NCBI GenBank assembly: GCA_934778205.1
Contig: CAKVOD010000002.1
Span: 141,564-205,563 of the forward strand
Direction of reading: 5' to 3'
Source of the DNA: an uncultured Clostridia bacterium
Lineage (GTDB): Bacteria > Bacillota > Clostridia > Christensenellales > UBA1242
DNA: 64,000 nucleotides
Shown one piece after another: positions 3,971-62,081 of this stretch (the first letter of the stretch is position 1; each line of letters starts with the position of its first letter). Under the pieces are notes generated by a model. That model worked only from the letters and a program-made list of their open reading frames with translations. It had not been told where the DNA came from and ran no database searches. The position numbers were made by a program, and so were the translations under genes.

Positions 3971-4788
3971 TATTTCAATACGAAATTCAGGACGCGCAAA
4001 TTTTTGAAAGTCACGGCGCGGGCAACGCTGATGATGAAAATTTTGATAAAAATGAAAGAATATTAAAAAACTTACATTATGAGTATGCTAAAATTGATGT
4101 CAACGTTCCAACGATAGTGTTGTTACATGGTTGGGGTGGCAATTATCAAAGTTTTTTGCCTATTTATTCAGCATTTGATGGCTATAATATTTTGTCATTG
4201 GACTTTTGCGGTTTTGGAAAAAGCGACAAACCAAACCCTAATTTTACCATATTTTCGTATGCTGAAGTTGTTGCAAGTTTGTTAAAACATTTAAACTTAA
4301 CTAATGTGATACTAGTAGGGCATTCTTTTGGTGGACGTGTTGCATTGATATTGAGTGAAAGTAACAAGGAAATTGTGAAAAAACTAATTTTAATTGATTC
4401 TGCAGGCATCAAACCGCGTTTCAGTGTAAAAAAAACGTTGAAAATTTTTAGATACAAATTTAATAAAAAACTTGTCGAGCACAATTTGCGAAATGTTAAG
4501 TGTTTGGAAAAGTTCGGTTCAGCGGACTACAAAATGTTAAGCAATGACGAAAAAAATGTTTTTTCAAGAGTGATAAAGGAAGATTTGAGCGGTTTTGCTA
4601 AGAAAATCGAACAAGAAACCCTAATCCTTTGGGGAGAAAATGACAAGGATACGCCACTTTATATGGCAAAAAAGTTGCATAAATACATAAAAAGTAGTAA
4701 ACTATTTGTAGTTAAAAGTGCTGAGCATTTTTCGTACTTAGACAATCCACAAATCGTGATTAAAATTATAAAGGAATTTTTAGAATGA
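3967..4788 (+). CDS. alpha/beta hydrolase fold protein
   Basis: HGWGG oxyanion motif and GHSFGG nucleophile elbow. Confidence 0.75.
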   Translation: MIFQYEIQDAQIFESHGAGNADDENFDKNERILKNLHYEYAKIDVNVPTIVLLHGWGGNYQSFLPIYSAFDGYNILSLDFCGFGKSDKPNPNFTIFSYAEVVASLLKHLNLTNVILVGHSFGGRVALILSESNKEIVKKLILIDSAGIKPRFSVKKTLKIFRYKFNKKLVEHNLRNVKCLEKFGSADYKMLSNDEKNVFSRVIKEDLSGFAKKIEQETLILWGENDKDTPLYMAKKLHKYIKSSKLFVVKSAEHFSYLDNPQIVIKIIKEFLE

Positions 4789-6419
4789 ATTTTATTGATG
4801 CGACAAATATTCATATGTACGTGGCAATTGCAATTTCTGTTGTGAATGCTGTTTTAATGTGGTATGTCGGTTACAAGTTTTTCCAAATCTTGCAACTGTC
4901 TAATTATAAGACAAAGCCATATTCTAATTGGATAAAAGACACAAAAGGGAAATATATGTCACGCGTTTCAATGCTATCAATATTGTCCTTTGCATTGATG
5001 ATGGTTACAAATGTTATATTAGATGCGACAAATATTGACGCCTTTTGGTCGTATTTTGGGTTGATATTCTATTTCTATTTGGTCATTGTCTTTATTGTCA
5101 ACGCTTACAGCGCACCCAAAAAGACTCCACTAAAAATCACGAATCGAATGAGTCGACTTAAATATTTATTTATACTTATTTGTAGCGGTATAACGTTTTG
5201 TATTATTTGGTTCTTTACGCAATTTTGTGCGCCAGTTAGTTATGCAGGCGTCGCCTTAACGCCGATGTTGTTGCCACTTATGGTTGTCTTTGTCAATTGG
5301 TGTTTGGTGCCTTTTGAAAAATGCAACTATAATAGATACATTATGCAGGCAAAACATAAACTTAAAAAGTATCCTGAACTAATAAAAATTGGCATTACTG
5401 GCAGTTTTGGTAAAACAAGCACGAAATTTATATTGAGTACGATTCTTTCGGAAAAATATTCAGTATGTGCAAGTCCTCTTAGTTATAATACGCCTATGGG
5501 CATAACAAAGGCAATCATTCAGTATTTAGATTTTTCTCATCAGGTTTTAATTGCGGAAATGGGGGCGCGATACGAGGGGGACATAAAAGAACTTTGTGAT
5601 TTGGTTCAACCACAATATGGGATTTTGACAAGCGTTGGAGAACAACACTTGCAATCATTTGGAACATTAGAAAAAATCACACAAACAAAGTATGAGTTAG
5701 TAGAGAGTTTGCCAGAGAATGGAGTAATTATTTTTAATGGACAAAATGATATTTGTCAAAGACTATATAACAAAACGAACAATCTTTCAAAAATCATTTG
5801 TGGCTTTGATGAAAAATTTGATGTTTACGCAGATTCAATAAAAACAAATAAAAACGGAACGCATTTTGTTTTGCATATAGGTGATGAAAAAATTGAATGT
5901 ACAACAATGCTACTTGGCGAACACAATATTGAAAATATCCTTTGTGCCTCAGCACTTGCTAACAAACTCGGTATGACAATCGATGAAATTCGCAACGGCA
6001 TTTCAAAACTACAGCCCGTAGAACATCGTTTGCAGTTGATTAATCTACAAAATGGTTCAACTATTTTAGACGATTCGTACAACGGTAGTATAGATGGTGC
6101 AAAACGTGCGCTACAAGTTTTGAAAATGTTTGACGGGGAAAAGATTGTCGTTACACCAGGTCTTGTTGAACTTGGTTCAAAAGAAAAACAAGCAAACATC
6201 AATTTTGGAGAACAAATTGCGGAAGTCGCCAATAAAGTTATTGTTGTCAACATTTCTAATGCTGAATATCTAAAGCAAGGGCTTGAGAATAAAAACTTTA
6301 ACCCCTCAAACGTATTTCAAACAGACACACTTGAAAATGCAAAAGTACTTTTGAAAACAATTGCACCAAATCAATCTGTAATATTATTTTACAATGATTT
6401 GCCCGACAATTATTTGTGA
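4785..6419 (+). CDS. murF: Mur ligase, MurF-like (UDP-MurNAc-tripeptide--D-Ala-D-Ala ligase type), with an N-terminal ~190-aa polytopic membrane domain
   Basis: GITGSFGKTSTK P-loop at about residue 205, then EMGARYEGDI, GEHNIEN, DDSYNGS and a TPGLVELG tail, all MurF-like. The first ~190 aa are about 5 hydrophobic helices. Confidence 0.65.
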   Translation: MNFIDATNIHMYVAIAISVVNAVLMWYVGYKFFQILQLSNYKTKPYSNWIKDTKGKYMSRVSMLSILSFALMMVTNVILDATNIDAFWSYFGLIFYFYLVIVFIVNAYSAPKKTPLKITNRMSRLKYLFILICSGITFCIIWFFTQFCAPVSYAGVALTPMLLPLMVVFVNWCLVPFEKCNYNRYIMQAKHKLKKYPELIKIGITGSFGKTSTKFILSTILSEKYSVCASPLSYNTPMGITKAIIQYLDFSHQVLIAEMGARYEGDIKELCDLVQPQYGILTSVGEQHLQSFGTLEKITQTKYELVESLPENGVIIFNGQNDICQRLYNKTNNLSKIICGFDEKFDVYADSIKTNKNGTHFVLHIGDEKIECTTMLLGEHNIENILCASALANKLGMTIDEIRNGISKLQPVEHRLQLINLQNGSTILDDSYNGSIDGAKRALQVLKMFDGEKIVVTPGLVELGSKEKQANINFGEQIAEVANKVIVVNISNAEYLKQGLENKNFNPSNVFQTDTLENAKVLLKTIAPNQSVILFYNDLPDNYL

Positions 6420-6788: not shown

Positions 6789-6833
6789 AAAGCCTAAAAC
6801 TTATGCGAACGCTGTGGTTTTGGGCTTTTTGTT
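6789..6833 (+). terminator. Rho-independent terminator after rpsO
   Basis: aaagcctaaaac / gttttgggcttt stem followed by a T-run. Confidence 0.6.
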
Positions 6834-6889
6834 TTGAAGTTTGTTTTTTGTATTGCAGGGCAAACAACAATATAAATATATAAAATTCA

Positions 6890-6941
6890 AATACAATATA
6901 TAGTGTATTCTATTTGTATAATACACTATATATTGTGTATT
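6890..6941 (+). promoter_or_regulatory. double-palindrome operator/promoter cassette, copy A, upstream of pnp
   Basis: AATACAATATATAGTGTATT, 10 bp, AATACACTATATATTGTGTATT. TATAAT (6917-6922) bridges the spacer and the second dyad. Near-identical architecture at 25931-25984. Confidence 0.55.
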
Positions 6942-6955
6942 ATATGGGAGTGAGT

Positions 6956-9046
6956 ATGGAAGAAAAAATATTTGAAACAACAATTGGCGGAAAAAAGGTT
7001 GAAGTTAATATTGGTAGATATGCTATGCAAGCAGACGGTTCTTGTATTGTGAGCTGTGGCGATACAATTGTTATGGTAAATGCAACTGTTGCTGAAAAGC
7101 CTCGCGACGGCGTTGACTTTTTACCTTTGTCAGTTGATTATGAAGAAAAATTGTACGCGGTTGGTAAAATCCCCGGTGGATACAAAAAACGCGAGGGGAA
7201 ACCAACGGACAAAGCTATTTTGGTATCAAGATTAATTGATAGACCATTGCGACCTCTTTTCCCAAAGGGGTTTCACAATGATATTTCAATTGTCGCAACA
7301 CCATTGTCTATTGACCCAGATGTATATCCTGAACCACTAGCAATGCTTGGCTCAAGCATTGCGCTCAGCATTTCTTCTGCACCTTTTGAAGGGCCAACGG
7401 GCGCAGTTAATGTTGGTCTTGTTGACGGAAAGTTTATTATCAATCCAACTCAGCAAGAGCGAGAAATCAGCAGACTGAACTTGACAGTTGCAGGTACTCA
7501 CGATGCTGTTTTAATGGTTGAAGCAGGCGCAAAATTTGTGGACGAAGAAACTATGTTAAAAGCCATAATGTTTGCCCACGACGAAATTAAAAAACAAGTT
7601 GAGTTTCAACTTGAAATTATGAAGCAGTTTTCTAAAGAAAAGAAGTCACTTATTGCAGAAGATGAAAGCGTCATAAAACTTGAAAGCGAAATAGAAAACT
7701 ATGTAAAACCACTGCTTGAAAAGGTGCTTGATACCTTTGTTCGCGAAGAAAGACAACATCGCAATAAAGAAATGAAGGAGCAAGTTTTGGAGCATTTTTC
7801 AAGTCTTTACCCTGGCAATGAAAATTTATCTACTTTGATTGAGCAAAAAGTTTATTCAATGACAAAGCAGAAAGTTCGCGAAAACATTGTCAAAAAAGGC
7901 ATTCGTTTAGATGGTAGAAAACTTGACGAAATTAGACCTATTTGGTGTGAGGCGGGAATTTTACCTCGTGTACACGGCTCGGGAGTTTTTACGCGTGGAC
8001 AAACGCAAGTTTTGACTACTTGCACACTTGGTATGCTCAGCGAAATGCAACATATTGAAGGACTTGAGGACATCGAGGAAGAAAAACGATATATGCACCA
8101 TTACAATATGCCACCATACAGCACAGGCGAAGCAAAAATGCTTCGTAGCCCCGGGCGTCGTGAAATTGGACACGGGGCGCTAGCAGAACGTGCGCTTGAA
8201 CCTGTTTTGCCGACTGAAGAAGAGTTTCCGTATGCTATCCGTACAGTTTCGGAAGTCCTTAGTTCAAATGGTTCAACATCTCAAGCAAGTGTGTGTGGTT
8301 CTACTCTTGCCCTTATGGATGCGGGAGTTCCTATTTCTTCGCCAGTAGCAGGAATTGCTATGGGACTTATCAAAGAAGGCGACGAAACATTTATTTTGAC
8401 CGATATTCAGGGCGAAGAAGATTTTTATGGCGATATGGACTTCAAGGTTGCAGGTACCGAAAGGGGCATTACTGCAATTCAAATGGACATTAAAATTAAG
8501 GGTATTAATGAAAATATTTTAAAAAATGCGCTTGAAAGGGCAAAAATTGGACGCTTGTTTATTATGAACAAAATGCTAGAAGTAATCTCTGAACCACGAA
8601 AATCGCTTTCTAAGTACGCACCAAAAATTATTTCATTCAATATTGACCCTGATAAGATTCGTGAAGTCATTGGAACGGGTGGCAAAAACATTAACAAAAT
8701 CATTGATGCAACGGGTGTTAAAATTGACATCGAAGATAATGGCTTTGTAACGATTGCTAGTTGCGATGGCGATATGATTGAAAAAGCAAAAAATATGATT
8801 CAAAACATTGTTCTTGACATTGAAGCGGGAATGATTCTTGTTGGCACGGTAGTCAAAATTAGTGACTTCGGCGCATTTGTTTCATTGACGCCTACGAAAG
8901 ATGGGCTTATTCACATTTCAAAACTATCTGATAAACGTGTAGAAAAAGTTGAAGATGTTGTCAAAGTTGGGGACAATGTCAAGGTTGAAGTTTTGAAAGT
9001 GGACAATCGCGGGCGAATTGATTTAAAATTAATTCAAAAAATGTAA
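6956..9046 (+). CDS. pnp: polyribonucleotide nucleotidyltransferase (PNPase)
   Basis: Two RNase PH domains plus KH and S1 tail; conserved rpsO-pnp pair. The ATG at 6956 has a GGGAG SD, whereas the ORF-track start at 6914 lies inside the promoter. Confidence 0.95.
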   Translation: MEEKIFETTIGGKKVEVNIGRYAMQADGSCIVSCGDTIVMVNATVAEKPRDGVDFLPLSVDYEEKLYAVGKIPGGYKKREGKPTDKAILVSRLIDRPLRPLFPKGFHNDISIVATPLSIDPDVYPEPLAMLGSSIALSISSAPFEGPTGAVNVGLVDGKFIINPTQQEREISRLNLTVAGTHDAVLMVEAGAKFVDEETMLKAIMFAHDEIKKQVEFQLEIMKQFSKEKKSLIAEDESVIKLESEIENYVKPLLEKVLDTFVREERQHRNKEMKEQVLEHFSSLYPGNENLSTLIEQKVYSMTKQKVRENIVKKGIRLDGRKLDEIRPIWCEAGILPRVHGSGVFTRGQTQVLTTCTLGMLSEMQHIEGLEDIEEEKRYMHHYNMPPYSTGEAKMLRSPGRREIGHGALAERALEPVLPTEEEFPYAIRTVSEVLSSNGSTSQASVCGSTLALMDAGVPISSPVAGIAMGLIKEGDETFILTDIQGEEDFYGDMDFKVAGTERGITAIQMDIKIKGINENILKNALERAKIGRLFIMNKMLEVISEPRKSLSKYAPKIISFNIDPDKIREVIGTGGKNINKIIDATGVKIDIEDNGFVTIASCDGDMIEKAKNMIQNIVLDIEAGMILVGTVVKISDFGAFVSLTPTKDGLIHISKLSDKRVEKVEDVVKVGDNVKVEVLKVDNRGRIDLKLIQKM

Positions 9047-9938: not shown

Positions 9939-12650
9939 ATGAATCGTAAAATCCTGTCCAAAGAAAATACTGCGCCCTTGATTGTTTTATTTGTTTCAGT
10001 GCTATTATTGATTTGTATGATGTTTTCAATTCTGGAGTTAGTCAATCATATAATTCTGGGGTTGTTTGGCGCTACTTCATACGTTATATTGCTTTCTTTA
10101 ATTTCTCTAAGCATTACTAAAATTCTTGGACTGAGGAACAATTTGTCAAAAAGTTTTATCGTGTGTTTGTTCGTCATTGCACTTTCAATGCTATTTATTA
10201 CGCACGTTTCTATGACAAATGTTTCTTACTCAATGTCATTTAAAAGCTGTCTAGAATATTCATTTGCGAATGTGACACCTGCAGGCGTCATATTTTCCTT
10301 GATTTTGTATCCCTTAAGATTAGTTTTGCCTCTTGAAGCAGTTATTTGTTTATTTGTTATATTGATTATCGTGTTTTTGTGTATTGCCGTTGACAAACAA
10401 TATCACAACAAGCATATAAGAATATCAAACAAGGCAACTCAGCCAACGAAAGAAGACAAATTGGAAAAGACAAAAGGGACGGGGAAAGCACAAACTATGA
10501 AAGTTCCTAATGTCACAATGGAAAAAAATAAGTCTATGCCGACATTTATTTCAATGCCACTCACTTTGAATGCGCAAATGGAAAAGGAACGCAATGATAG
10601 ATTAGATGATTTGTTAACTCCGATTCAACCACGTAAAATAAGCATCAAAAATCAAGAGAGAGTTCAACCGACCAAAATCGATGCTTCAATATATTCAAAC
10701 ATAATAAATGCCGACGAATTGTCAAAAGGAGTTAAACAATCATCTAGTGATGATGATTTTATATCTCCTTTAAAACCGCAGAAAATATTGCATACTGATA
10801 CAACAGATAGTACAATTATTGGCAAACCACGCACTATTTTGCAAGAAAAAAATCTCGATGAATTTACACCGAACTTAAGTGTCGATGCCAACGATATACC
10901 AACGAATGTTGAAGTTAGTGAAACCATTGATGATGATATAGACGATATTTTAGGAGCGCCCAAAACAGATGCGGTTTCAAAATTAGGGCTTGACAAAAAA
11001 GAAGACAAAGAAATTACTGATTTGGACAAGTTTTTGCAGTGTGAGAGTTCCGTTAGTTCTCCAAAAAAGAACGAAAATGCAACTTCTCCAGCAATAAATA
11101 ATGTAGGACTTGGTTTAAAGAATAATGCAGGTGCTGTGTCATCTAATAATTTGGCTATCAATGAACAAAAAGTTGTAAAACCAAAACCAAAGAAGCCTAT
11201 GAAATACGTTTATCCGCCACTTGAATTATTGACAACACAAAGCACAATTCCTAATCTTGCGGACAATGCCTTTGAAGAAAAAGCGCATACTATTGAAGAA
11301 AAACTTGAAGAATTTAAAATTTCGGCGAAATGTATCGGAGTTACGCGCGGACCTGCGATTACTAGATATGAGTTTGAAATGCCAAGGGGTATTCCTGTAA
11401 ATAAAGTTTTACAATATTCAAACGATATTTCAATGGTCCTTGAAAGTCGAAGGGCAATAAGAATCGAAGCGCCTATACCGGGTAAAAATGCGTTTGGTAT
11501 TGAAGTGCCAAATGATAAAGTGGACACAATCGGCTTGCGCGATTTGATTGATTGCAAAGAGTTTAAGGGGGAAAAGTCGCCACTAACTTTTGCTCTTGGG
11601 AAAGACATTACAAACAAATCAATTATGGGAGATGTCGGCAAGCTTGTGCATACTCTTGTCGCGGGGTCAACAGGTAGTGGTAAGTCAGTTTGTATGAACG
11701 CAATCATTATTTCACTACTTTATAAAGCATCTCCTGCAGATGTGCGCATTATCTTAATCGACCCGAAATTTGTAGAGTTTGCAATCTATGAAAATATGCC
11801 ACATTTGTTGCTCCCTAAGATAGTGACTGAGCCAGCACAAGCAGTCAATGCGCTAAACTGGGCTTGTGAAGAAATGGAGCGAAGAAACCGCATTTTTGGC
11901 AAATTCTATGTTCGTAGTATTGATGAATATAATGAAATGCCTGAAGTTTTGAATGGAACGGAAGAAAAAATGTACAAAATCGTCATTATGGTTGATGAAC
12001 TTAACGACCTAATGATGAACGCAAGAAAAGAGGTTGAAGAAAAAATCTTGAAACTTGCGCAAAAAGCGCGCTCCTGCGGAATACACTTAATTCTTGCAAC
12101 GCAACGTCCGTCAGTTGATGTTATCACGGGGACAATTAAAGCGAACCTGCCTTCACGTATTGCGTTTTCACTCACAAACTATAGTGATAGTAAAACGATT
12201 ATTGACCAAGGGGGTGCTGAAAAGTTGCTTGGCCGTGGTGATATGTTGTATAGTCCGCGTGGGGAAGAACCTACACGTTTGCTTGGACCATTCGTTTCGC
12301 AACAAGAGGTTTCCAGTGTCGTTAAGTTCATAAAAGAACACAACCAGTGCGATTTTGACCCCGAAATTGCAAATGCAATAATGGTCAAGCGTACAAATGA
12401 GGGCGGTGCTGCAGGACCTGCCGATGCCACTAGTGATGAATATTTTGTTCAAGCACTTAGGTGGGCAATTGAATCTCAAGTATGTTCAACTTCCTCATTG
12501 CAAAGGCGTTTTGGAATAGGATATCAAAGAGCAGCACGCCTTGTAGATGCTTTTGAAGCACATCAGTACATTTCAAAAGCGGAAGGGTCAAAACCACGTC
12601 AAATTTTCATCACTATGGAAGAATTTTTGCGCTTATATGGAAATAACTAA
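9939..12650 (+). CDS. ftsK: DNA translocase FtsK/SpoIIIE
   Basis: N-terminal TM helices, a long low-complexity linker, a motor domain with AGSTGSGKSV, and a C-terminal gamma (winged-helix) domain. Confidence 0.9.
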   Translation: MNRKILSKENTAPLIVLFVSVLLLICMMFSILELVNHIILGLFGATSYVILLSLISLSITKILGLRNNLSKSFIVCLFVIALSMLFITHVSMTNVSYSMSFKSCLEYSFANVTPAGVIFSLILYPLRLVLPLEAVICLFVILIIVFLCIAVDKQYHNKHIRISNKATQPTKEDKLEKTKGTGKAQTMKVPNVTMEKNKSMPTFISMPLTLNAQMEKERNDRLDDLLTPIQPRKISIKNQERVQPTKIDASIYSNIINADELSKGVKQSSSDDDFISPLKPQKILHTDTTDSTIIGKPRTILQEKNLDEFTPNLSVDANDIPTNVEVSETIDDDIDDILGAPKTDAVSKLGLDKKEDKEITDLDKFLQCESSVSSPKKNENATSPAINNVGLGLKNNAGAVSSNNLAINEQKVVKPKPKKPMKYVYPPLELLTTQSTIPNLADNAFEEKAHTIEEKLEEFKISAKCIGVTRGPAITRYEFEMPRGIPVNKVLQYSNDISMVLESRRAIRIEAPIPGKNAFGIEVPNDKVDTIGLRDLIDCKEFKGEKSPLTFALGKDITNKSIMGDVGKLVHTLVAGSTGSGKSVCMNAIIISLLYKASPADVRIILIDPKFVEFAIYENMPHLLLPKIVTEPAQAVNALNWACEEMERRNRIFGKFYVRSIDEYNEMPEVLNGTEEKMYKIVIMVDELNDLMMNARKEVEEKILKLAQKARSCGIHLILATQRPSVDVITGTIKANLPSRIAFSLTNYSDSKTIIDQGGAEKLLGRGDMLYSPRGEEPTRLLGPFVSQQEVSSVVKFIKEHNQCDFDPEIANAIMVKRTNEGGAAGPADATSDEYFVQALRWAIESQVCSTSSLQRRFGIGYQRAARLVDAFEAHQYISKAEGSKPRQIFITMEEFLRLYGNN

Positions 12651-12671
12651 TAAATTATGGAGATAACTCAA

Positions 12672-13997
12672 ATGAACACCAATGAAAAAACCGTTGCACT
12701 TGTAAGCCTCGGTTGTGACAAAAATACTGTTGATTCAGAAAAGATTTTATTTTCAATCAAAAATGCTGGATTTAATATAACATCGAATTTAAGAGAAGCA
12801 AATATTATAATTTTGAACACGTGTGCCTTTATTTTAGATGCACAACAAGAGTCAATAGATTCAATTTTGAACGCTGAACAATACAAAAATAATGGCGTGT
12901 GCGAAAAAATTCTGGTATGTGGCTGTTTAGTTGCACGTAATGGTGCTGATTTGGTCAAAGAAATACCGAGCATAGATAGAATTGTCAATATTAATGAATA
13001 TGACAAAATTCCTGAAATAATATGCAAACTTTATGACGATGACAGTTTTAATATTTGCAAATCACAAATGGTGGGCCGAATTTTGTCGACGCCGCAACAT
13101 TATGCATATGTTAAAATTGCAGATGGTTGCGACAATTTTTGTACTTATTGTACTATACCCAAAATTCGCGGGCGCTTTAGAAGTCGTACAATTGAGGATA
13201 TTGTCGATGAATGCAAAAACCTTGTTCGTGATGGGGTTAAAGAACTTATTATAGTTGCTCAAGACGTGACACGTTATGGAATAGATTTGTACGGAGAATA
13301 TAAAATTGTTGAATTAATCAACAAACTCAGTCAAATTGAGGGCGTCAAATGGATTAGACTACATTATTGCTATCCTGAGTTGATTTCTGATGAATTAATC
13401 AATCTTGTAGCAACAAATGACAAAGTTTGCAAATACTTTGATATTCCTTTGCAACACATTGCAAACAATGTTCTCAAAAAAATGAACAGAAAAAGCACAT
13501 ATGAGTCAATTTGCAAGTTGATTGAAAAGATAAAATTGCAAAGCAAAAAAATTGCGATAAGGTCCTCATTTATTGTCGGTTTCCCGGGCGAAACTGAGCA
13601 AGATTTTGAACAACTAAAAGATTTTGTCGTTAAATTTAAACTTGATAATGTGGGCGTTTTTCAGTATTCGCGCGAAGATGGGACACCCGCATTCAGTATG
13701 CCAAACCAAGTCACGAGTAAAGTAAAAAAACAACGCCAAAAAGAAATATATCAAGTTCAACAAAATGTTGTAAAAGAACTTAATGAATCAATGGTTGGGC
13801 AAGTTATTACTGCAGTTTGTGATGACATTGAGGGAGATAAAGCAATTTTGCGCAGTGAGTACAATTCGCCAAATGTCGACACAGATATCATTTGCGAGGC
13901 GATTGACGGAATCGAGCAAGGCCAATTTTACCAAGTGGAGATTATAGGATACACTGACTATGACCTTGTGGGCGCAATTAAAGGAGAAAACGTATGA
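12672..13997 (+). CDS. rimO: ribosomal protein S12 methylthiotransferase RimO
   Basis: VSLGCDKNTVDSE N-terminus, radical-SAM CDNFCTYC, TRAM C-terminus. GGAG lies 9 nt upstream of the ATG at 12672; 12657 is an alternative start. Confidence 0.85.
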   Translation: MNTNEKTVALVSLGCDKNTVDSEKILFSIKNAGFNITSNLREANIIILNTCAFILDAQQESIDSILNAEQYKNNGVCEKILVCGCLVARNGADLVKEIPSIDRIVNINEYDKIPEIICKLYDDDSFNICKSQMVGRILSTPQHYAYVKIADGCDNFCTYCTIPKIRGRFRSRTIEDIVDECKNLVRDGVKELIIVAQDVTRYGIDLYGEYKIVELINKLSQIEGVKWIRLHYCYPELISDELINLVATNDKVCKYFDIPLQHIANNVLKKMNRKSTYESICKLIEKIKLQSKKIAIRSSFIVGFPGETEQDFEQLKDFVVKFKLDNVGVFQYSREDGTPAFSMPNQVTSKVKKQRQKEIYQVQQNVVKELNESMVGQVITAVCDDIEGDKAILRSEYNSPNVDTDIICEAIDGIEQGQFYQVEIIGYTDYDLVGAIKGENV

Positions 13998-29297: not shown

Positions 29298-29303
29298 CAA
29301 AAA

Positions 29304-29355
29304 AACTTTATTTAGGTATAACTCAAATGAGTCGCAACCTAGATAAAGTTTTTTA
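29304..29355. terminator. bidirectional terminator between convergent lexA and miaA
   Basis: aactttatttaggt / acctagataaagtt 14-bp stem (13 of 14) with T-runs on both strands. Confidence 0.6.
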
Positions 29356-35245: not shown

Positions 35246-36574
35246 CTAATCCTCCATAATCTGCCCGTAAAGTTGGTTGTTCTCTATAGAAACGATTTTT
35301 ACATCAACAAAATCTTGTAAATTTAATTTTGCGTTCTTCACAACAATTGTTTTGCCACTGTCAGTTTTTACGATATATGTATTTTCATCTAACTGTGAAT
35401 CAACAATACAATTTTCTGTTTGTCCTACCATATTTCGCGAAATCTCTTTTGAAATTTCTTTTTCCAAAGCAAGAAGTGCATTAACACGCTTGTGTTTGTC
35501 GTCATTTGTAACTTGATTTGGCATATCTGCAGCAGGCGTTCCTCTGCGTGGCGAATACATAAATACAAATAAACCATTGTATTTTACGCGCTTAACAAGT
35601 TCGCAGGTTTGATTAAACTCTTTTTCAGTTTCGCCTGGAAATCCTACAATTATATCGCTTGTCAGCGAAACATTTGGTATGAGTTCTCTAATTTTTTTGA
35701 TTGTGTTTTCATAATGTTCTACAGTATAGTTTCTATTCATTCTTTTCAAAATTTCGTCGCTACCAGATTGAATCGGCAAGTGAATCGTTTTCGATATCTT
35801 ATCATTTCGCGAAATGGTTTCAATGACATCATCAGTTAAATCTTTCGGATGAGAAGTCATAAATTTTAGTTTGAAATTATATGGCAAATCGGCAATTTTT
35901 TGCAAAAGTTCAGCAAACGTTGTGCCATCGTTCAGGTCTTTGCCATATGAATTTACATTTTGTCCCAAAAGAGTTATAATCTTGTATTGCCCTGTTTTTA
36001 AAAGCGACTCAACTTCCAAGATTATGTCTTGCTTTTTTCTGCTTTTTTCACGCCCACGAACATATGGAACAATGCAGTACGTGCAAAAATTGTTGCAACC
36101 ATACATAATATTGACCCAACCATTATAGCCACTTGTTCTTGCCATAGGCACATTTTCAACAATATCAAGCATTTCGCCGTCTATTGATACAATACGTTTT
36201 TTTGTATTATCGTAGTCATCAAGCAGTTTTCCAAACTTTCCCAAATTGTGAGTTCCAAAAATTATGCTAATAAATGGAAAGCGTTTATATAGCAACTCAG
36301 CCATACTATCTTGTTGGCTCATACACCCGCAAACTGCGACGATGAGATTTGGATTTTTCTTTTTCAAATGTTTTATTGCTCCAATGTTGCCCAAAATCTT
36401 TTCCTCTGCGGATTTTCTAATGCAACAAGTGTTGAAAACAATTATATCTGCATCTTTTACTTCTTTTGTTTCAACATAGCCCCTTTCTTCCAAAAAACCA
36501 GCAAGTTTTTCTGATTCGTGAACATTCATTTGACATCCATATGTCATAATATTGTACTTCTTTATTTTTTCCAT
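35246..36574 (-). CDS. miaB: tRNA-2-methylthio-N6-dimethylallyladenosine synthase
   Basis: TYGCQMN N-terminus, radical-SAM CNNFCTYC, TRAM domain. Confidence 0.9.
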   Translation of the reverse strand: MEKIKKYNIMTYGCQMNVHESEKLAGFLEERGYVETKEVKDADIIVFNTCCIRKSAEEKILGNIGAIKHLKKKNPNLIVAVCGCMSQQDSMAELLYKRFPFISIIFGTHNLGKFGKLLDDYDNTKKRIVSIDGEMLDIVENVPMARTSGYNGWVNIMYGCNNFCTYCIVPYVRGREKSRKKQDIILEVESLLKTGQYKIITLLGQNVNSYGKDLNDGTTFAELLQKIADLPYNFKLKFMTSHPKDLTDDVIETISRNDKISKTIHLPIQSGSDEILKRMNRNYTVEHYENTIKKIRELIPNVSLTSDIIVGFPGETEKEFNQTCELVKRVKYNGLFVFMYSPRRGTPAADMPNQVTNDDKHKRVNALLALEKEISKEISRNMVGQTENCIVDSQLDENTYIVKTDSGKTIVVKNAKLNLQDFVDVKIVSIENNQLYGQIMED

Positions 36575-39175: not shown

Positions 39176-39264
39176 TGGTGCCGAAGGCGGGACTTGAACC
39201 CGCACAGGTATTACTACCCGAAGGATTTTAAGTCCTTTGCGTCTGCCTATTCCGCCACTTCGGC
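39176..39264 (-). tRNA. tRNA-Leu (anticodon UAA), CCA encoded
   Basis: Reverse complement gives a gccgaag acceptor, long variable arm, anticodon loop cuUAAaa, T-loop GGTTCAAGTCC and 3' CCA. Confidence 0.85.
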
Positions 39265-39266
39265 TC

Positions 39267-39341
39267 TGGAGGCGCCACCCAGATTTGAACTGGGGAATGA
39301 AGGTTTTGCAGACCTGTGCCTTACCACTTGGCTATGGCGCC
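39267..39341 (-). tRNA. tRNA-Cys (anticodon GCA), CCA encoded
   Basis: Reverse complement ggcgccatagccaagtggtaaggc...cuGCAaa...GTTCAAATC...cca. Confidence 0.85.
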
Positions 39342-39365
39342 AGCATTGCATATGATATAAAAAAA

Positions 39366-39440
<75 letters not shown>

Positions 39441-39464
39441 GTTCCACAATAATAATATTGTGAT

Positions 39465-39540
39465 TGGTGGGAACTATAGGACTCGAACCTATGACCATCT
39501 GCTTGTAAGGCAGGTGCTCTACCAACTGAGCTAAGCTCCC
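39465..39540 (-). tRNA. tRNA-Val (anticodon UAC), CCA encoded
   Basis: Reverse complement gggagcttagctcagttggtagagc...cuUACaa...GGTTCGAGTCC...cca. Confidence 0.85.
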
Positions 39541-57306: not shown

Positions 57307-58572
57307 CTATTCAATTAATTTGCCAAGCATTGCGTCTCCTGAAATTTCAATAAGTTCTACGTCAACCGTTTGTGAGCATTCAACTGAATTCTTTGGTAGC
57401 AACACTTTAATATACTCTTTTGTGTAACCAACAAGAAAATTACCTTTGATATTTTCAGTCAACATAGATGCCGTTTTACCAATATGCGCAACTAAAAACG
57501 CATTATGAAGTTCTTTTTTCAATGCAAGCATTTTTGCTTTACGCTCTTTCAAAACTTTGCTATCAAGTGGTTTTTTTAGTTTAGAAATTGCTGTACCTGA
57601 GCGCTCTGAATAAGCAAATGCGTGAATATCACTAAAGTTTGCTGTTTTAATTGTTTGCAGTGTTTCTTCAAAATCGGCATCCGTTTCAGTTGGAAAACCA
57701 ACAATAACATCGGTTGTAACAGCGCAATCAGGGAAATATTCTCTTATTAAATTGACCTTTTCTAAAAATTGCGCGGTGTTGTAGTGGCGGTTCATATCTT
57801 TGAGTGTTTGATTTGCGCCACTTTGCAATGGTAGATGAAAATGTGGACAAAAGTTTTTACATTTTTGCAATTCAGCGAGTAATTCGCGCGAAATCACATT
57901 ACATTCAATCGAACTTATACGCAAGCGAATGTCAATCGTTTGAATCGCCTTTATTAAGTCAACAAAAGTTTCTCCGCGGTCAGTGTGGTAATCGGAAACA
58001 TTTATTCCAGTCAAAACAACCTCTTTGGACTCTTTTTGCGCCTGTTTTATTTCTTCAACAACCTCATTGAGTTTACGCGAGCGAGAACGTCCACGCACAT
58101 ATGGAATCAAGCAATATGAGCAAAAATTATTGCAACCGTCTTGAATCTTCACAAAATGGCGTGTTTTATCCATTTGAGGGTTGGTGTAGTCTTCGTACGT
58201 TTCACTGATATAGCACTTTGGCTCAAATTGACACTCATTTTGCATATTTTGGACGAAAGAAACAATGTCGAGTTTGTTCATACCAAACACTGCAACAACG
58301 TTTTCTTTGCGTTCGTATTGCAAAGGATTATTTTGTGACGAACATCCGCAAATGATTATTTTTATGTTGGGGTTTTTACTTGTTATGCTACCAACCATTT
58401 GACGCGACTTTGCCTCAGCTTCGTTCGTTACTGCACAAGTAACCACTATTGCTATGTCGGCTTCTTCGGGCGTAGCGACTTCAATGTGTCCGTATTCTTT
58501 TAGCGATGTCATTAGGCTTGACGCCTCATACTCGTTGACTTTACAACCCATTTTTTTGATGTATATATTCAT
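57307..58572 (-). CDS. mtaB: tRNA (t6A37) methylthiotransferase MtaB
   Basis: MGCKVNEYE N-terminus, radical-SAM CNNFCSYC; conserved rsmE-mtaB order (B. subtilis yqeU-yqeV). Confidence 0.85.
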   Translation of the reverse strand: MNIYIKKMGCKVNEYEASSLMTSLKEYGHIEVATPEEADIAIVVTCAVTNEAEAKSRQMVGSITSKNPNIKIIICGCSSQNNPLQYERKENVVAVFGMNKLDIVSFVQNMQNECQFEPKCYISETYEDYTNPQMDKTRHFVKIQDGCNNFCSYCLIPYVRGRSRSRKLNEVVEEIKQAQKESKEVVLTGINVSDYHTDRGETFVDLIKAIQTIDIRLRISSIECNVISRELLAELQKCKNFCPHFHLPLQSGANQTLKDMNRHYNTAQFLEKVNLIREYFPDCAVTTDVIVGFPTETDADFEETLQTIKTANFSDIHAFAYSERSGTAISKLKKPLDSKVLKERKAKMLALKKELHNAFLVAHIGKTASMLTENIKGNFLVGYTKEYIKVLLPKNSVECSQTVDVELIEISGDAMLGKLIE

Positions 58573-61418: not shown

Positions 61419-61503
61419 TGGTGCGCATAGAGGGACTTGAACCCCCACGTCGTAAAACACTAGATCCTAAGTCTAGCGCGTCTGCCAATTCCGCCATATG
61501 CGC
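61419..61503 (-). tRNA. tRNA-Leu (anticodon UAG), CCA encoded
   Basis: Reverse complement gcgcatatggcggaattggcagacgc...cuUAGga..., long variable arm, GGTTCAAGTCC, cca. Confidence 0.85.
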
Positions 61504-61507
61504 ATAC

Positions 61508-61582
61508 TGGCTGGGGTGGCTGGATTCGAACCAACGCATGTGAGGGTCAGAGTCTCATGCCTTACCGCTTGGCGACACCCCA
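61508..61582 (-). tRNA. tRNA-Gln (anticodon CUG), CCA encoded
   Basis: Reverse complement tggggtgtcgccaagcggtaaggc...cuCUGac...GGTTCGAATCC...cca. Confidence 0.8.
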
Positions 61583-61620
61583 GTGCTCGGCAAATCTTTG
61601 CCAGCCGTTCATAAAAAAAA

Positions 61621-61696
61621 TGGTGACCCATCCGAGGCTCGAACTCGGGACAACTTGATTAAAAGTCAAGTGCTCTACCTACTGAGCTAATGAGTC
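61621..61696 (-). tRNA. tRNA-Lys (anticodon UUU), CCA encoded
   Basis: Reverse complement gactcattagctcagtaggtagagc...cuUUUaa...GTTCGAGCC...cca. Confidence 0.85.
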
Positions 61697-61720
61697 ATTC
61701 ACTCTTGCTTTCGCAAGAAT

Positions 61721-61795
61721 TGGCTGGGGTGGCTGGATTCGAACCAACGCATGCGAGAGTCAAAGTCTCGTGCCTTACCGCTTGGCGACACCCCA
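61721..61795 (-). tRNA. tRNA-Gln (anticodon UUG), CCA encoded
   Basis: Same acceptor, D and T arms as the 61508-61582 copy; anticodon loop cuUUGac. Confidence 0.85.
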
Positions 61796-61828
61796 ATATT
61801 AAAAAATAAAAAGAAATAATAAATTATG

Positions 61829-61906
61829 TGGGGTGGGTGATGAGTCTCGAACTCACGACCTCTAGAGTCACAGTCTAGCGCTCTAACCAACTGAGCTACA
61901 CCCACC
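61829..61906 (-). tRNA. tRNA-His (anticodon GUG) with encoded G-1 and CCA
   Basis: Reverse complement g-gtgggtgtagctcagttggttagagc...cuGUGac...GTTCGAGAC...cacccac-c-cca. The extra 5' G opposite C73 is the His identity element. Confidence 0.85.
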
Positions 61907-61910
61907 AAAA

Positions 61911-61986
61911 TGGTACGCCTGAAGGGATTCGAACCCCTGACCCACGCCTTAGAAGGGCGTTGCTCTTCCAGCTGAGCTACAGACGC
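61911..61986 (-). tRNA. tRNA-Arg (anticodon UCU), CCA encoded
   Basis: Reverse complement gcgtctgtagctcagctggaagagc...cuUCUaa...GGTTCGAATCC...cca. Confidence 0.85.
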
Positions 61987-62007
61987 TTGCTGAAACATAA
62001 TTTATAG

Positions 62008-62081
62008 TGGAGCGGGTGATGGGAATCGGACCCACGCGACCAGCTTGGAAGGCTGGGGCTCTACCATTGAGCTACACCCGC
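62008..62081 (-). tRNA. tRNA-Gly (anticodon UCC), CCA encoded
   Basis: Reverse complement gcgggtgtagctcaatggtagagc...cuUCCaa...GGTCCGATTCC...cca. Confidence 0.85.

Follow-up and report, generated by a model that had tools for sequence, protein, structure and literature searches.

The question raised by this locus is which protein, if any, recognises a palindromic cassette that stands twice in a 64,000-nt stretch of DNA from an uncultured Clostridia bacterium (GenBank assembly GCA_934778205.1, contig CAKVOD010000002.1, positions 141,564 to 205,563 of the forward strand; hereafter the window), once before pnp, the gene for polynucleotide phosphorylase (PNPase), and once before a gene for a YgjP-like zinc metallohydrolase. 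A preliminary description of the window had presented the two copies as a promoter cassette for which no regulator had been described. In this study, we compared the cassette with the operator of NrdR, a Zn-ribbon/ATP-cone repressor of DNA-precursor synthesis that senses dATP and ATP, and followed it through the corresponding loci of related species. We favour the reading that the cassette is a lineage-specific palindrome, similar to the doublets of repetitive extragenic palindromic (REP) sequences called REPINs, and that its arms would form a working NrdR operator, which would place pnp and the ygjP-like gene under control of the deoxyribonucleoside triphosphate (dNTP) pool. We estimate the probability of this reading at about 0.5.

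Anatomy of the cassette and its match to the NrdR operator

Each cassette, about 50 bp long, consists of two 16-bp dyads and a 16-bp linker (A, 6891-6938; B, 25934-25981; Table 1). Taken as 22-mers of the form AATACAC-N8-GTGTATT, the dyads are separated by 10 bp in both copies, and the 22-mers of A2 and B1 are identical at 21 of 22 positions. Dyad A1 is out of perfect register, and its 22-mer is CAAATACAATATATAGTGTATT, not a 20-mer. Box 2 of copy B agrees with the reverse complement of its box 1 at 15 of 16 positions. At the 3' end of each linker lies a TATAAT hexamer (6916-6921 in A, 25959-25964 in B), 34 nt from the ATG of pnp at 6956 and 53 nt from the ATG of the ygjP-like gene at 26018. 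The preliminary description had given the same 10-bp spacer, the same identity of A2 and B1 and the same TATAAT and ATG distances, and our analysis bore them out; its repressor-type layout also stands, with helically phased dyads that straddle a putative -10 box just upstream of two plus-strand genes.

The known NrdR site is a pair of 16-bp boxes placed 15-16 bp apart, each a partial palindrome in which C4, A6, A8, T9, T11 and G13 are conserved, and NrdR tolerates a box spacing of 14-17 bp (PMC13584703; PMC12051234). All six conserved positions were present in each of the four boxes of the window, and both linkers measured 16 bp. Positions 4-16 of box A2 (13 contiguous) were identical to E. 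coli nrdEF box 1, TTGCTATATATTGTGT. We then scored the window with a matrix derived solely from 10 boxes of E. coli and S. coelicolor whose affinity for NrdR has been measured. The results showed that the four boxes ranked 1-4 among 63,985 window positions, at 17.3-19.5 bits, while the published boxes themselves scored 11.5-18.5 bits and the next best window site 11.9. As pairs, the cassettes scored 36-38, compared with no more than 17 for any window site away from both.

Two further scans set the cassettes apart from the rest of the window. With a 22-nt matrix, the four boxes reached 25-33 bits, and no other site in the 64 kb exceeded 10 bits. The strict pair pattern C.A.AT.T.G-N20-23-C.A.AT.T.G occurred three times, against 0.028 expected, and none of 500 Markov shuffles reached two. 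The third of these pairs, at the start of yceD (849-888), was rejected as chance because it lacks the flanking ACA/TGT and has a score of nil in both weight matrices. The published loose regular expression returned 14 pairs (28 both-strand hits against a both-strand shuffle mean of 16.6) and was set aside as uninformative, because shuffles of the AT-rich window yield comparable counts.

Table 1. Features of the window that bear on the cassettes (positions are those of the window; bits refer to the matrix of published NrdR boxes)
Feature	Position	Strand	Remarks
Copy A box 1	6891-6906	.	ATACAATATATAGTGT; 6/6 conserved NrdR-box positions; 18.2 bits
Copy A linker, 16 bp	6907-6922	+	attctatttgtataat; TATAAT toward pnp
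Copy A box 2	6923-6938	.	ACACTATATATTGTGT; 19.5 bits, the top site of the window
Copy B box 1	25934-25949	.	ACACTATATATGGTGT; 18.6 bits
Copy B linker, 16 bp	25950-25965	+	attctaactatataat; TATAAT toward the ygjP-like gene
Copy B box 2	25966-25981	.	ACACCATATATAGTAT; 17.3 bits
rpsO terminator hairpin and T-run	6791-6835	+	Read from the sequence; directly upstream of cassette A; kept in L001 and L002
pnp (PNPase)	6956-9046	+	NCBIfam NF008805, E = 5.5e-296
YgjP-like zinc metallohydrolase gene	26018-26704	+	HELAH motif; Pfam PF01863, E = 4.9e-55
PadR-domain gene, 640 aa	23861-25783	-	Divergent from ygjP; N-terminal PadR winged helix
Ordinary bidirectional terminator hairpin, lexA/miaA convergent spacer	29300-29354	.	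Window; cassette at this place in five related species

The same agreement was found in related species. Their loci are designated here by L-numbers. The window comes from an uncultured, low-GC lineage of Clostridia, and in the public collection its neighbours bear the labels Christensenellales or Christensenellaceae. We first tabulated 30 boxes from 15 copies and later assembled 19 distinct copies from five loci in up to seven species. Over the 30 boxes, the six NrdR-conserved positions were conserved at 93% on average, the column profile read A1 C2 A3 C4 n A6 T7 A8 T9 A10 T11 n G13 T14 G15 T16, and only positions 5 and 12 varied freely, as in the published NrdR logo. All 19 distinct copies share a linker length of 16 bp; the linker ends (ATT...AAT) were invariant or nearly so, and the central 4-8 nt were free. 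In the published view of NrdR, the linker is limited in length, not in sequence, and published NrdR sites overlap the promoter and the transcription start site.

By every published sequence criterion, the cassette is a tandem NrdR-box operator, and we infer from this match that NrdR may bind it. The statement that no known regulator fits is therefore untenable, because the six box positions, the spacing and the matrix of bound boxes all point to NrdR. The related proposal that pnp and the ygjP-like gene share one type of control site holds, with a pair of NrdR boxes before each.

A weak third NrdR-like box, TTACAACATATTTTAT (25906-25921, 10.6 bits), was also observed 14 bp upstream of B1, between the cassette and the -35 hexamer of padR. 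It is partly kept in L084 and L083, and it is reminiscent of "box 0", a non-functional box found in some nrd promoters.

Copies at pnp and ygjP in related species

The pnp copy was found in the window, in L001 (95% PNPase identity), in L002 and L095 (85%) and in L092. It was absent from all 78 other pnp loci examined, which come from Christensenellales-like genomes and have no more than 70% PNPase identity, and in the nearest distant relatives that were read the ribosome-binding site (RBS) of pnp follows the rpsO terminator directly, with no cassette between them. Conservation of the cassette at pnp, which the preliminary description had named as a check, thus extends to the closest relatives and stops there. 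We take the pnp copy to be a recent insertion or gain, because it is limited to these relatives and missing at the 78 loci of 70% identity or less. An apparent tandem cassette in L002 (2827-2926) was discarded as a scaffolding artefact, with identical copies on either side of an N-run; L095, of the same species group, has one cassette.

The ygjP copy is more widely conserved. It was present in seven species with YgjP identities of 59-89%, in a spacer that is otherwise poorly conserved, where it is visible as a block of conserved sequence next to the promoter of the padR-domain gene, which is conserved separately. In the more distant species, box 2 lies over the RBS or the start codon of ygjP. 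The outgroup L090 (YgjP identity 42%) keeps the padR/ygjP gene pair and has no cassette.

We discarded concerted evolution of the two window copies as an explanation: 10 of the 48 positions differ between A and B, as many as between B and its L084 ortholog. The PNPase of the window has no exact match in the public collection. No match to the double dyad was found among viral contigs, and a metagenome scan for GTGTATTCTANNNNTATAATACAC gave one match, in L081, which was judged to be chance because it lies within a coding region and lacks the box core. A truncated phosphoglycerate-mutase fragment lies at the right end of the window; its matches in a homolog search were all fragments, and none gave a usable relative.

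Dispersed copies in convergent 3' spacers

The cassette is not confined to promoters. In the species group, it occupies five loci within about 75 kb, two at the 5' ends of genes and three in convergent 3' spacers. In the lexA/miaA spacer, five species carry a copy right after the lexA stop codon, followed by a T-run, while L084 resembles the window in having an ordinary hairpin terminator there and no cassette. Three species carry a copy in the spacer between a tetratricopeptide-repeat (TPR) gene and murG; in these copies box 1 is identical, the boxes are nearly unchanged and the linker centres differ, always at a length of 16 bp. The spacer between a gene for an 89-aa protein and the acetyl-CoA-synthetase gene holds a copy in L092 only, and ordinary GC-rich terminators are found at the acetyl-CoA-synthetase spacer in L095 (7673-7725) and L097 (about 7660-7700).

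Thus, in two of the three convergent spacers, some species have an ordinary terminator where others have the cassette, and related species have acquired or lost the cassette at individual spacers. From this pattern, the cassette and the unrelated ordinary terminators appear to be functionally interchangeable at the spacers they share. The most likely function of the copies in the 3' spacers is termination. Scans of the window and of the related loci found the boxes solely as pairs, with no single units. No transposase of the RAYT (REP-associated tyrosine transposase, IS200/IS605-like) type is annotated in the window.

The preliminary description had accepted that a dispersed intergenic repeat with dozens of copies unrelated to promoters would speak against its promoter cassette. 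Our results fall on both sides: three of the five loci are non-promoter convergent spacers, and the other two are at 5' ends. The promoter view is incomplete, as the cassette is a dispersed palindromic element. Judged from its distribution, it belongs to a lineage-specific family of palindromic intergenic elements of about 50-60 bp whose turnover resembles that of REP and REPIN sequences.

Hairpin potential and covariation of the arms

We next considered the cassette as RNA. Each copy is predicted to fold into one long stem formed by box 1 and box 2 (-19 to -33 kcal/mol, z-scores -3.3 to -9); for the pnp copy the hairpin is near-perfect, with about 20 bp and -21 kcal/mol. The two boxes of many copies are complementary to each other at 14-16 of 16 positions, including positions outside the consensus. 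Some variants of single loci are mirrored exactly across the arms, for example TAAATAT/ATATTTA at the TPR/murG spacer and GGGGT/ACCCC at the acetyl-CoA-synthetase spacer, and the single boxes then become poorer palindromes.

These folds raise the alternative that the cassette is a REP/REPIN-like repeat without any part for NrdR, which would matter solely for its hairpin in RNA (or single-stranded DNA) and whose likeness to NrdR boxes would be coincidental. We consider this unlikely. On this view, the element would be a bidirectional terminator or 3'-end stabiliser in the 3' spacers and, before pnp, a leader hairpin like the one cut by RNase III in PNPase autoregulation. It would account for the stability of the predicted folds, for the convergent spacers in which relatives have ordinary terminators, for the T-runs after the lexA-site copies, for the covarying arms and for the appearance and loss of copies between related species; REPINs, too, are REP doublets with a spacer of fixed length and compensatory changes. 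However, chance would be very unlikely to produce a fit to the six NrdR positions together with the ACA/TGT flanks and a spacing of 16 bp (1e-3 or less by a rough estimate). Each arm is a dyad in itself, which a plain hairpin does not need, and the boxes never occur singly. The linker, which would bear the loop, is constant in length over 19 copies, whereas RNA loops usually tolerate changes in length.

The pattern of changes in the arms bears on this alternative and on a second one. In the first 15 copies, arm pairing was 82.4%, compared with 81.6% in shuffles, so that column composition accounts for all of it. In the 19 copies from five loci, covariation was 0.139 against 0.098 +/- 0.014 in shuffles, a value reached by 1 of 500, and changes on both sides numbered 29 against 19.7 (4 of 500), although kinship among the copies may raise these figures. 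Pairs changed on both sides in more than one sequence fell, inside the boxes, at positions 2/15, 5/12 and 7/10 only; no such change was seen at the six pairs of NrdR-critical positions, which counts against a pure hairpin. So does box 2 of the ygjP copy, which in several species pairs poorly with box 1 (10-12 of 16) but keeps the NrdR core.

The second alternative is a plain enlargement of the NrdR regulon, in which all copies would be operators, those in the 3' spacers serving unannotated or antisense transcripts, and the hairpin would be a by-product. It draws on the same match to NrdR as our favoured reading, on the figures for the first 15 copies and on the -10-like hexamers (TATAAT or TAGAAT) that flank the boxes on both strands, the lexA site included; moreover, peripheral, lineage-specific members of the NrdR regulon have been predicted in lactic acid bacteria. 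Nevertheless, we hold it to be improbable. The arms of the 19 copies covary above shuffles and the locus variants are mirrored exactly, there is no conserved gene space downstream of the 3'-spacer copies, and at two of the three 3' spacers an ordinary terminator replaces the cassette in relatives.

Together, these results suggest that the cassette is under two constraints, as an NrdR-type protein site and through the complementarity of its arms, because the arms covary only where NrdR has no need of a given base. This double constraint is part of the reading we favour.

Neighbouring genes, the replication terminus and other candidate binders

The gene assignments of the preliminary description (pnp, rpsO, the PF01863 ygjP-like gene and the PadR-domain gene) stand. 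Cassette A sits between the rpsO terminator and the RBS of pnp, GGGAGTG at 6946-6952, which begins 8 nt past box 2. Cassette B sits between the padR-domain gene and the ygjP-like gene. The YgjP-like protein gave a weak match to proabylysin in the Protein Data Bank; databases list YgjP of E. coli as a UTP pyrophosphatase. The PadR-domain protein consists of a winged helix (residues 1-90), about 400 low-complexity residues rich in N, S, D and E, and a hydrophobic C-terminal tail that resembles about four membrane helices, and this layout suggests a PadR-type factor anchored in the membrane. Its relatives are 438-667 aa long and are invariably encoded divergently from ygjP. The predicted padR promoter (TTGACA-17-TAAAAT, 25873-25901) lies outside cassette B and forms a block that is invariant in seven species.

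The cumulative GC skew of the window peaks at about 26-30 kb, with values of +0.10 to +0.19 on the left and -0.05 to -0.18 on the right, and gene orientation flips there. Because the skew peak and this flip coincide, the window probably spans the replication terminus. Four cassette loci lie to the left of the peak and the lexA/miaA locus lies at it, all within about 35 kb.

Genes observed near the peak include those for a XerS-like recombinase (27515-28585) and FtsK (9939-12650), together with recA, lexA, mutS, mutL, priA, ligA and pcrA. An AT-rich gap of 810 nt (26705-27514) separates the ygjP-like gene from the XerS-like gene; it has no open reading frame (ORF) longer than 41 aa and no Rfam match, and the corresponding gap in relatives measures 0.4-1.4 kb. 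A dif-type site is expected close to a xerS-like gene, and crude pattern searches near this one found nothing convincing as a dif-like core.

This setting suggests a third alternative, namely that the cassette is bound by another lineage-specific protein, such as the membrane-anchored PadR-domain neighbour, or that the copies are terminus sites of a Ter/RTP-like or matS-like kind. The presence of cassette B in the padR/ygjP divergent spacer in seven of seven species is consistent with the former. The latter would fit the position of all five loci around the GC-skew maximum beside the XerS-like recombinase, and in B. subtilis the Ter sites are likewise grouped at the terminus, next to a gene that encodes a winged-helix protein. 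We nevertheless rate this alternative as very improbable, as for either binder the match to NrdR must be coincidence. The core of the cassette does not resemble the PadR operators of the type ATGT-N8-ACAT. The padR promoter is set apart by about 30 bp and conserved as a block of its own, four of the five cassette loci have no padR neighbour, and in L090 the padR/ygjP spacer has no cassette and carries the dyad TATGTTAGACATAA twice. The PadR-like neighbour, put forward earlier as a candidate regulator, is thus a poor one, given its own sigma-70 promoter outside the cassette and the outgroup gene pair without it. A role at the terminus is further opposed by the orientation of the copies, which show no consistent polarity around the skew switch.

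The two L090 copies of the different dyad TATGTTAGACATAA (within 4681-4868) are about 34 bp apart, and this dyad is a plausible operator for the PadR-domain protein itself.

Other features of the window

Three paralogous genes for UPF0004/radical-SAM methylthiotransferases of the MiaB/RimO type were observed within 46 kb (12657-13997, 35246-36574 and 57307-58572). A 293-aa ORF at 59506-60387 matches the collagen-like triple-helix repeat (PF01391), which is unusual amid housekeeping genes. Two tRNA clusters lie on the minus strand, at 39179-39540 (four genes) and 61422-62081 (seven genes), and an Rfam scan of the window returned tRNAs only.

Comparison with known systems

NrdR operators are known at the nrdAB, nrdHIEF, nrdDG and nrdJ promoters; a literature search returned no report tying NrdR to pnp. 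The cassettes share with them the 16-bp partial palindromes, the six conserved positions and the 15-16-bp gap, which amounts to three helical turns from centre to centre, and each would lie over a putative -10 box and the likely start site. They differ in the genes concerned, which are pnp and the ygjP-like gene and not a ribonucleotide-reductase (RNR) operon, in having copies in convergent 3' spacers as well, and in the palindrome itself, which is extended (TAKAAT...ATTMTA), with conserved linker ends and arms that are mirrored past the consensus.

The resemblance to REP sequences, REPINs and bacterial interspersed mosaic elements (BIMEs) lies in two palindromic units that would form one long hairpin, in the fixed spacer and in the compensatory changes of the arms; the cassette is also extragenic, often at 3' ends, and gained or lost between relatives. 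At about 50 bp, however, it is much shorter than a typical REPIN. REPINs number tens to hundreds of copies per genome, while five cassette loci were seen in about 75 kb. Unlike REPINs, some cassette copies occupy orthologous sites across species with about 60% protein identity, and the arms match a known transcription-factor site.

The leader of E. coli rpsO-pnp contains an RNase III hairpin that serves the autoregulation of PNPase. As in that leader, a long stem-loop is predicted here between the rpsO terminator and the RBS of pnp. The cassette differs from it in occurring at four other loci too, in having a -10 box in the loop region and in being restricted to the pnp leaders of the closest relatives, at 70% PNPase identity or less being absent. 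A further parallel is offered by the DNA-uptake sequences of Neisseria and Haemophilus, which occur as inverted pairs forming terminators. They, too, are a protein-recognised motif that stands as an inverted pair in 3' spacers and doubles as a terminator hairpin, but the motif, the protein and the purpose are different, and no uptake role is suggested for the cassette.

Proposed mechanism and implications

NrdR tetramers loaded with dATP and ATP bind two boxes three helical turns apart, bend the DNA sharply and block RNA polymerase, while NrdR loaded with ATP only forms oligomers that do not bind (PMC9110341). On the reading we favour, when dATP is plentiful, a dATP/ATP-NrdR tetramer would occupy both boxes of a cassette, three helical turns apart, with the DNA bent between them. 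The bound NrdR would occlude the promoter, with the -10 hexamer in the linker and the start site in box 2. The pnp and ygjP-like genes would then be repressed along with ribonucleotide reductase and released when dNTPs are low. Control of pnp in this way could couple the phosphorolytic release of nucleoside diphosphates (NDPs) from RNA, which are the substrates of the reductase, to the demand for DNA precursors. In the convergent 3' spacers, the transcript of the element would instead fold as a hairpin of 20-28 bp.

A proposal by Danchin (1997), as cited in PMC10221552, holds that PNPase largely supplies cytidine diphosphate (CDP) for deoxyribonucleotide synthesis. Co-regulation of pnp with the reductase would thus make physiological sense, because PNPase frees NDPs from RNA and has been proposed as a route to CDP. 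Concerning origin, one might tentatively suppose that a REPIN-like element copies an NrdR operator with its -10 box around the chromosome and recruits genes, pnp among them, so that NrdR would act at many sites, including terminators; we regard this extension as possible but doubtful.

Several observations weigh against NrdR control of these genes. First, NrdR is deemed RNR-specific: genome-wide work on E. coli and P. aeruginosa found pairs of boxes at RNR operons only, with single boxes at most at non-RNR genes (bioRxiv 10.1101/2025.03.28.645925). Second, a search of the 64-kb window and of some 0.8 Mb at the related loci found neither a ribonucleotide-reductase gene nor nrdR, no ATP-cone gene was seen in the window, and tblastn with NrdR queries gave no match in the window or the loci of relatives. 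Third, neither linker TATAAT, in cassette A or B, is accompanied by a canonical -35 hexamer. Fourth, conservation runs past the 16-bp box (TAKAAT-ACAC...GTGT-ATTMTA), where NrdR has no known requirement. Finally, three of the five loci lie away from promoters, the clustering of five loci in about 75 kb beside the replication terminus is odd for a small regulon, and the possible effect of kinship on the covariation figures belongs here as well.

If NrdR does not bind, the cassette is just a new REP-like family in an uncultured lineage of gut Clostridia, which would be ordinary. If the favoured reading is true, the correctly spaced NrdR-box pairs conserved at pnp and the gene for the YgjP-like hydrolase would give NrdR its first clear operators outside the RNR genes, and the copies in the 3' spacers would be further non-RNR pairs of NrdR boxes. 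NrdR would then be a multi-site regulator and not strictly RNR-specific, as it is now described. The link to pnp offers a direct, testable handle on the CDP proposal of 1997. A transcription-factor site that spreads as a small palindromic repeat would, in turn, represent a route by which a regulon may be rewired.

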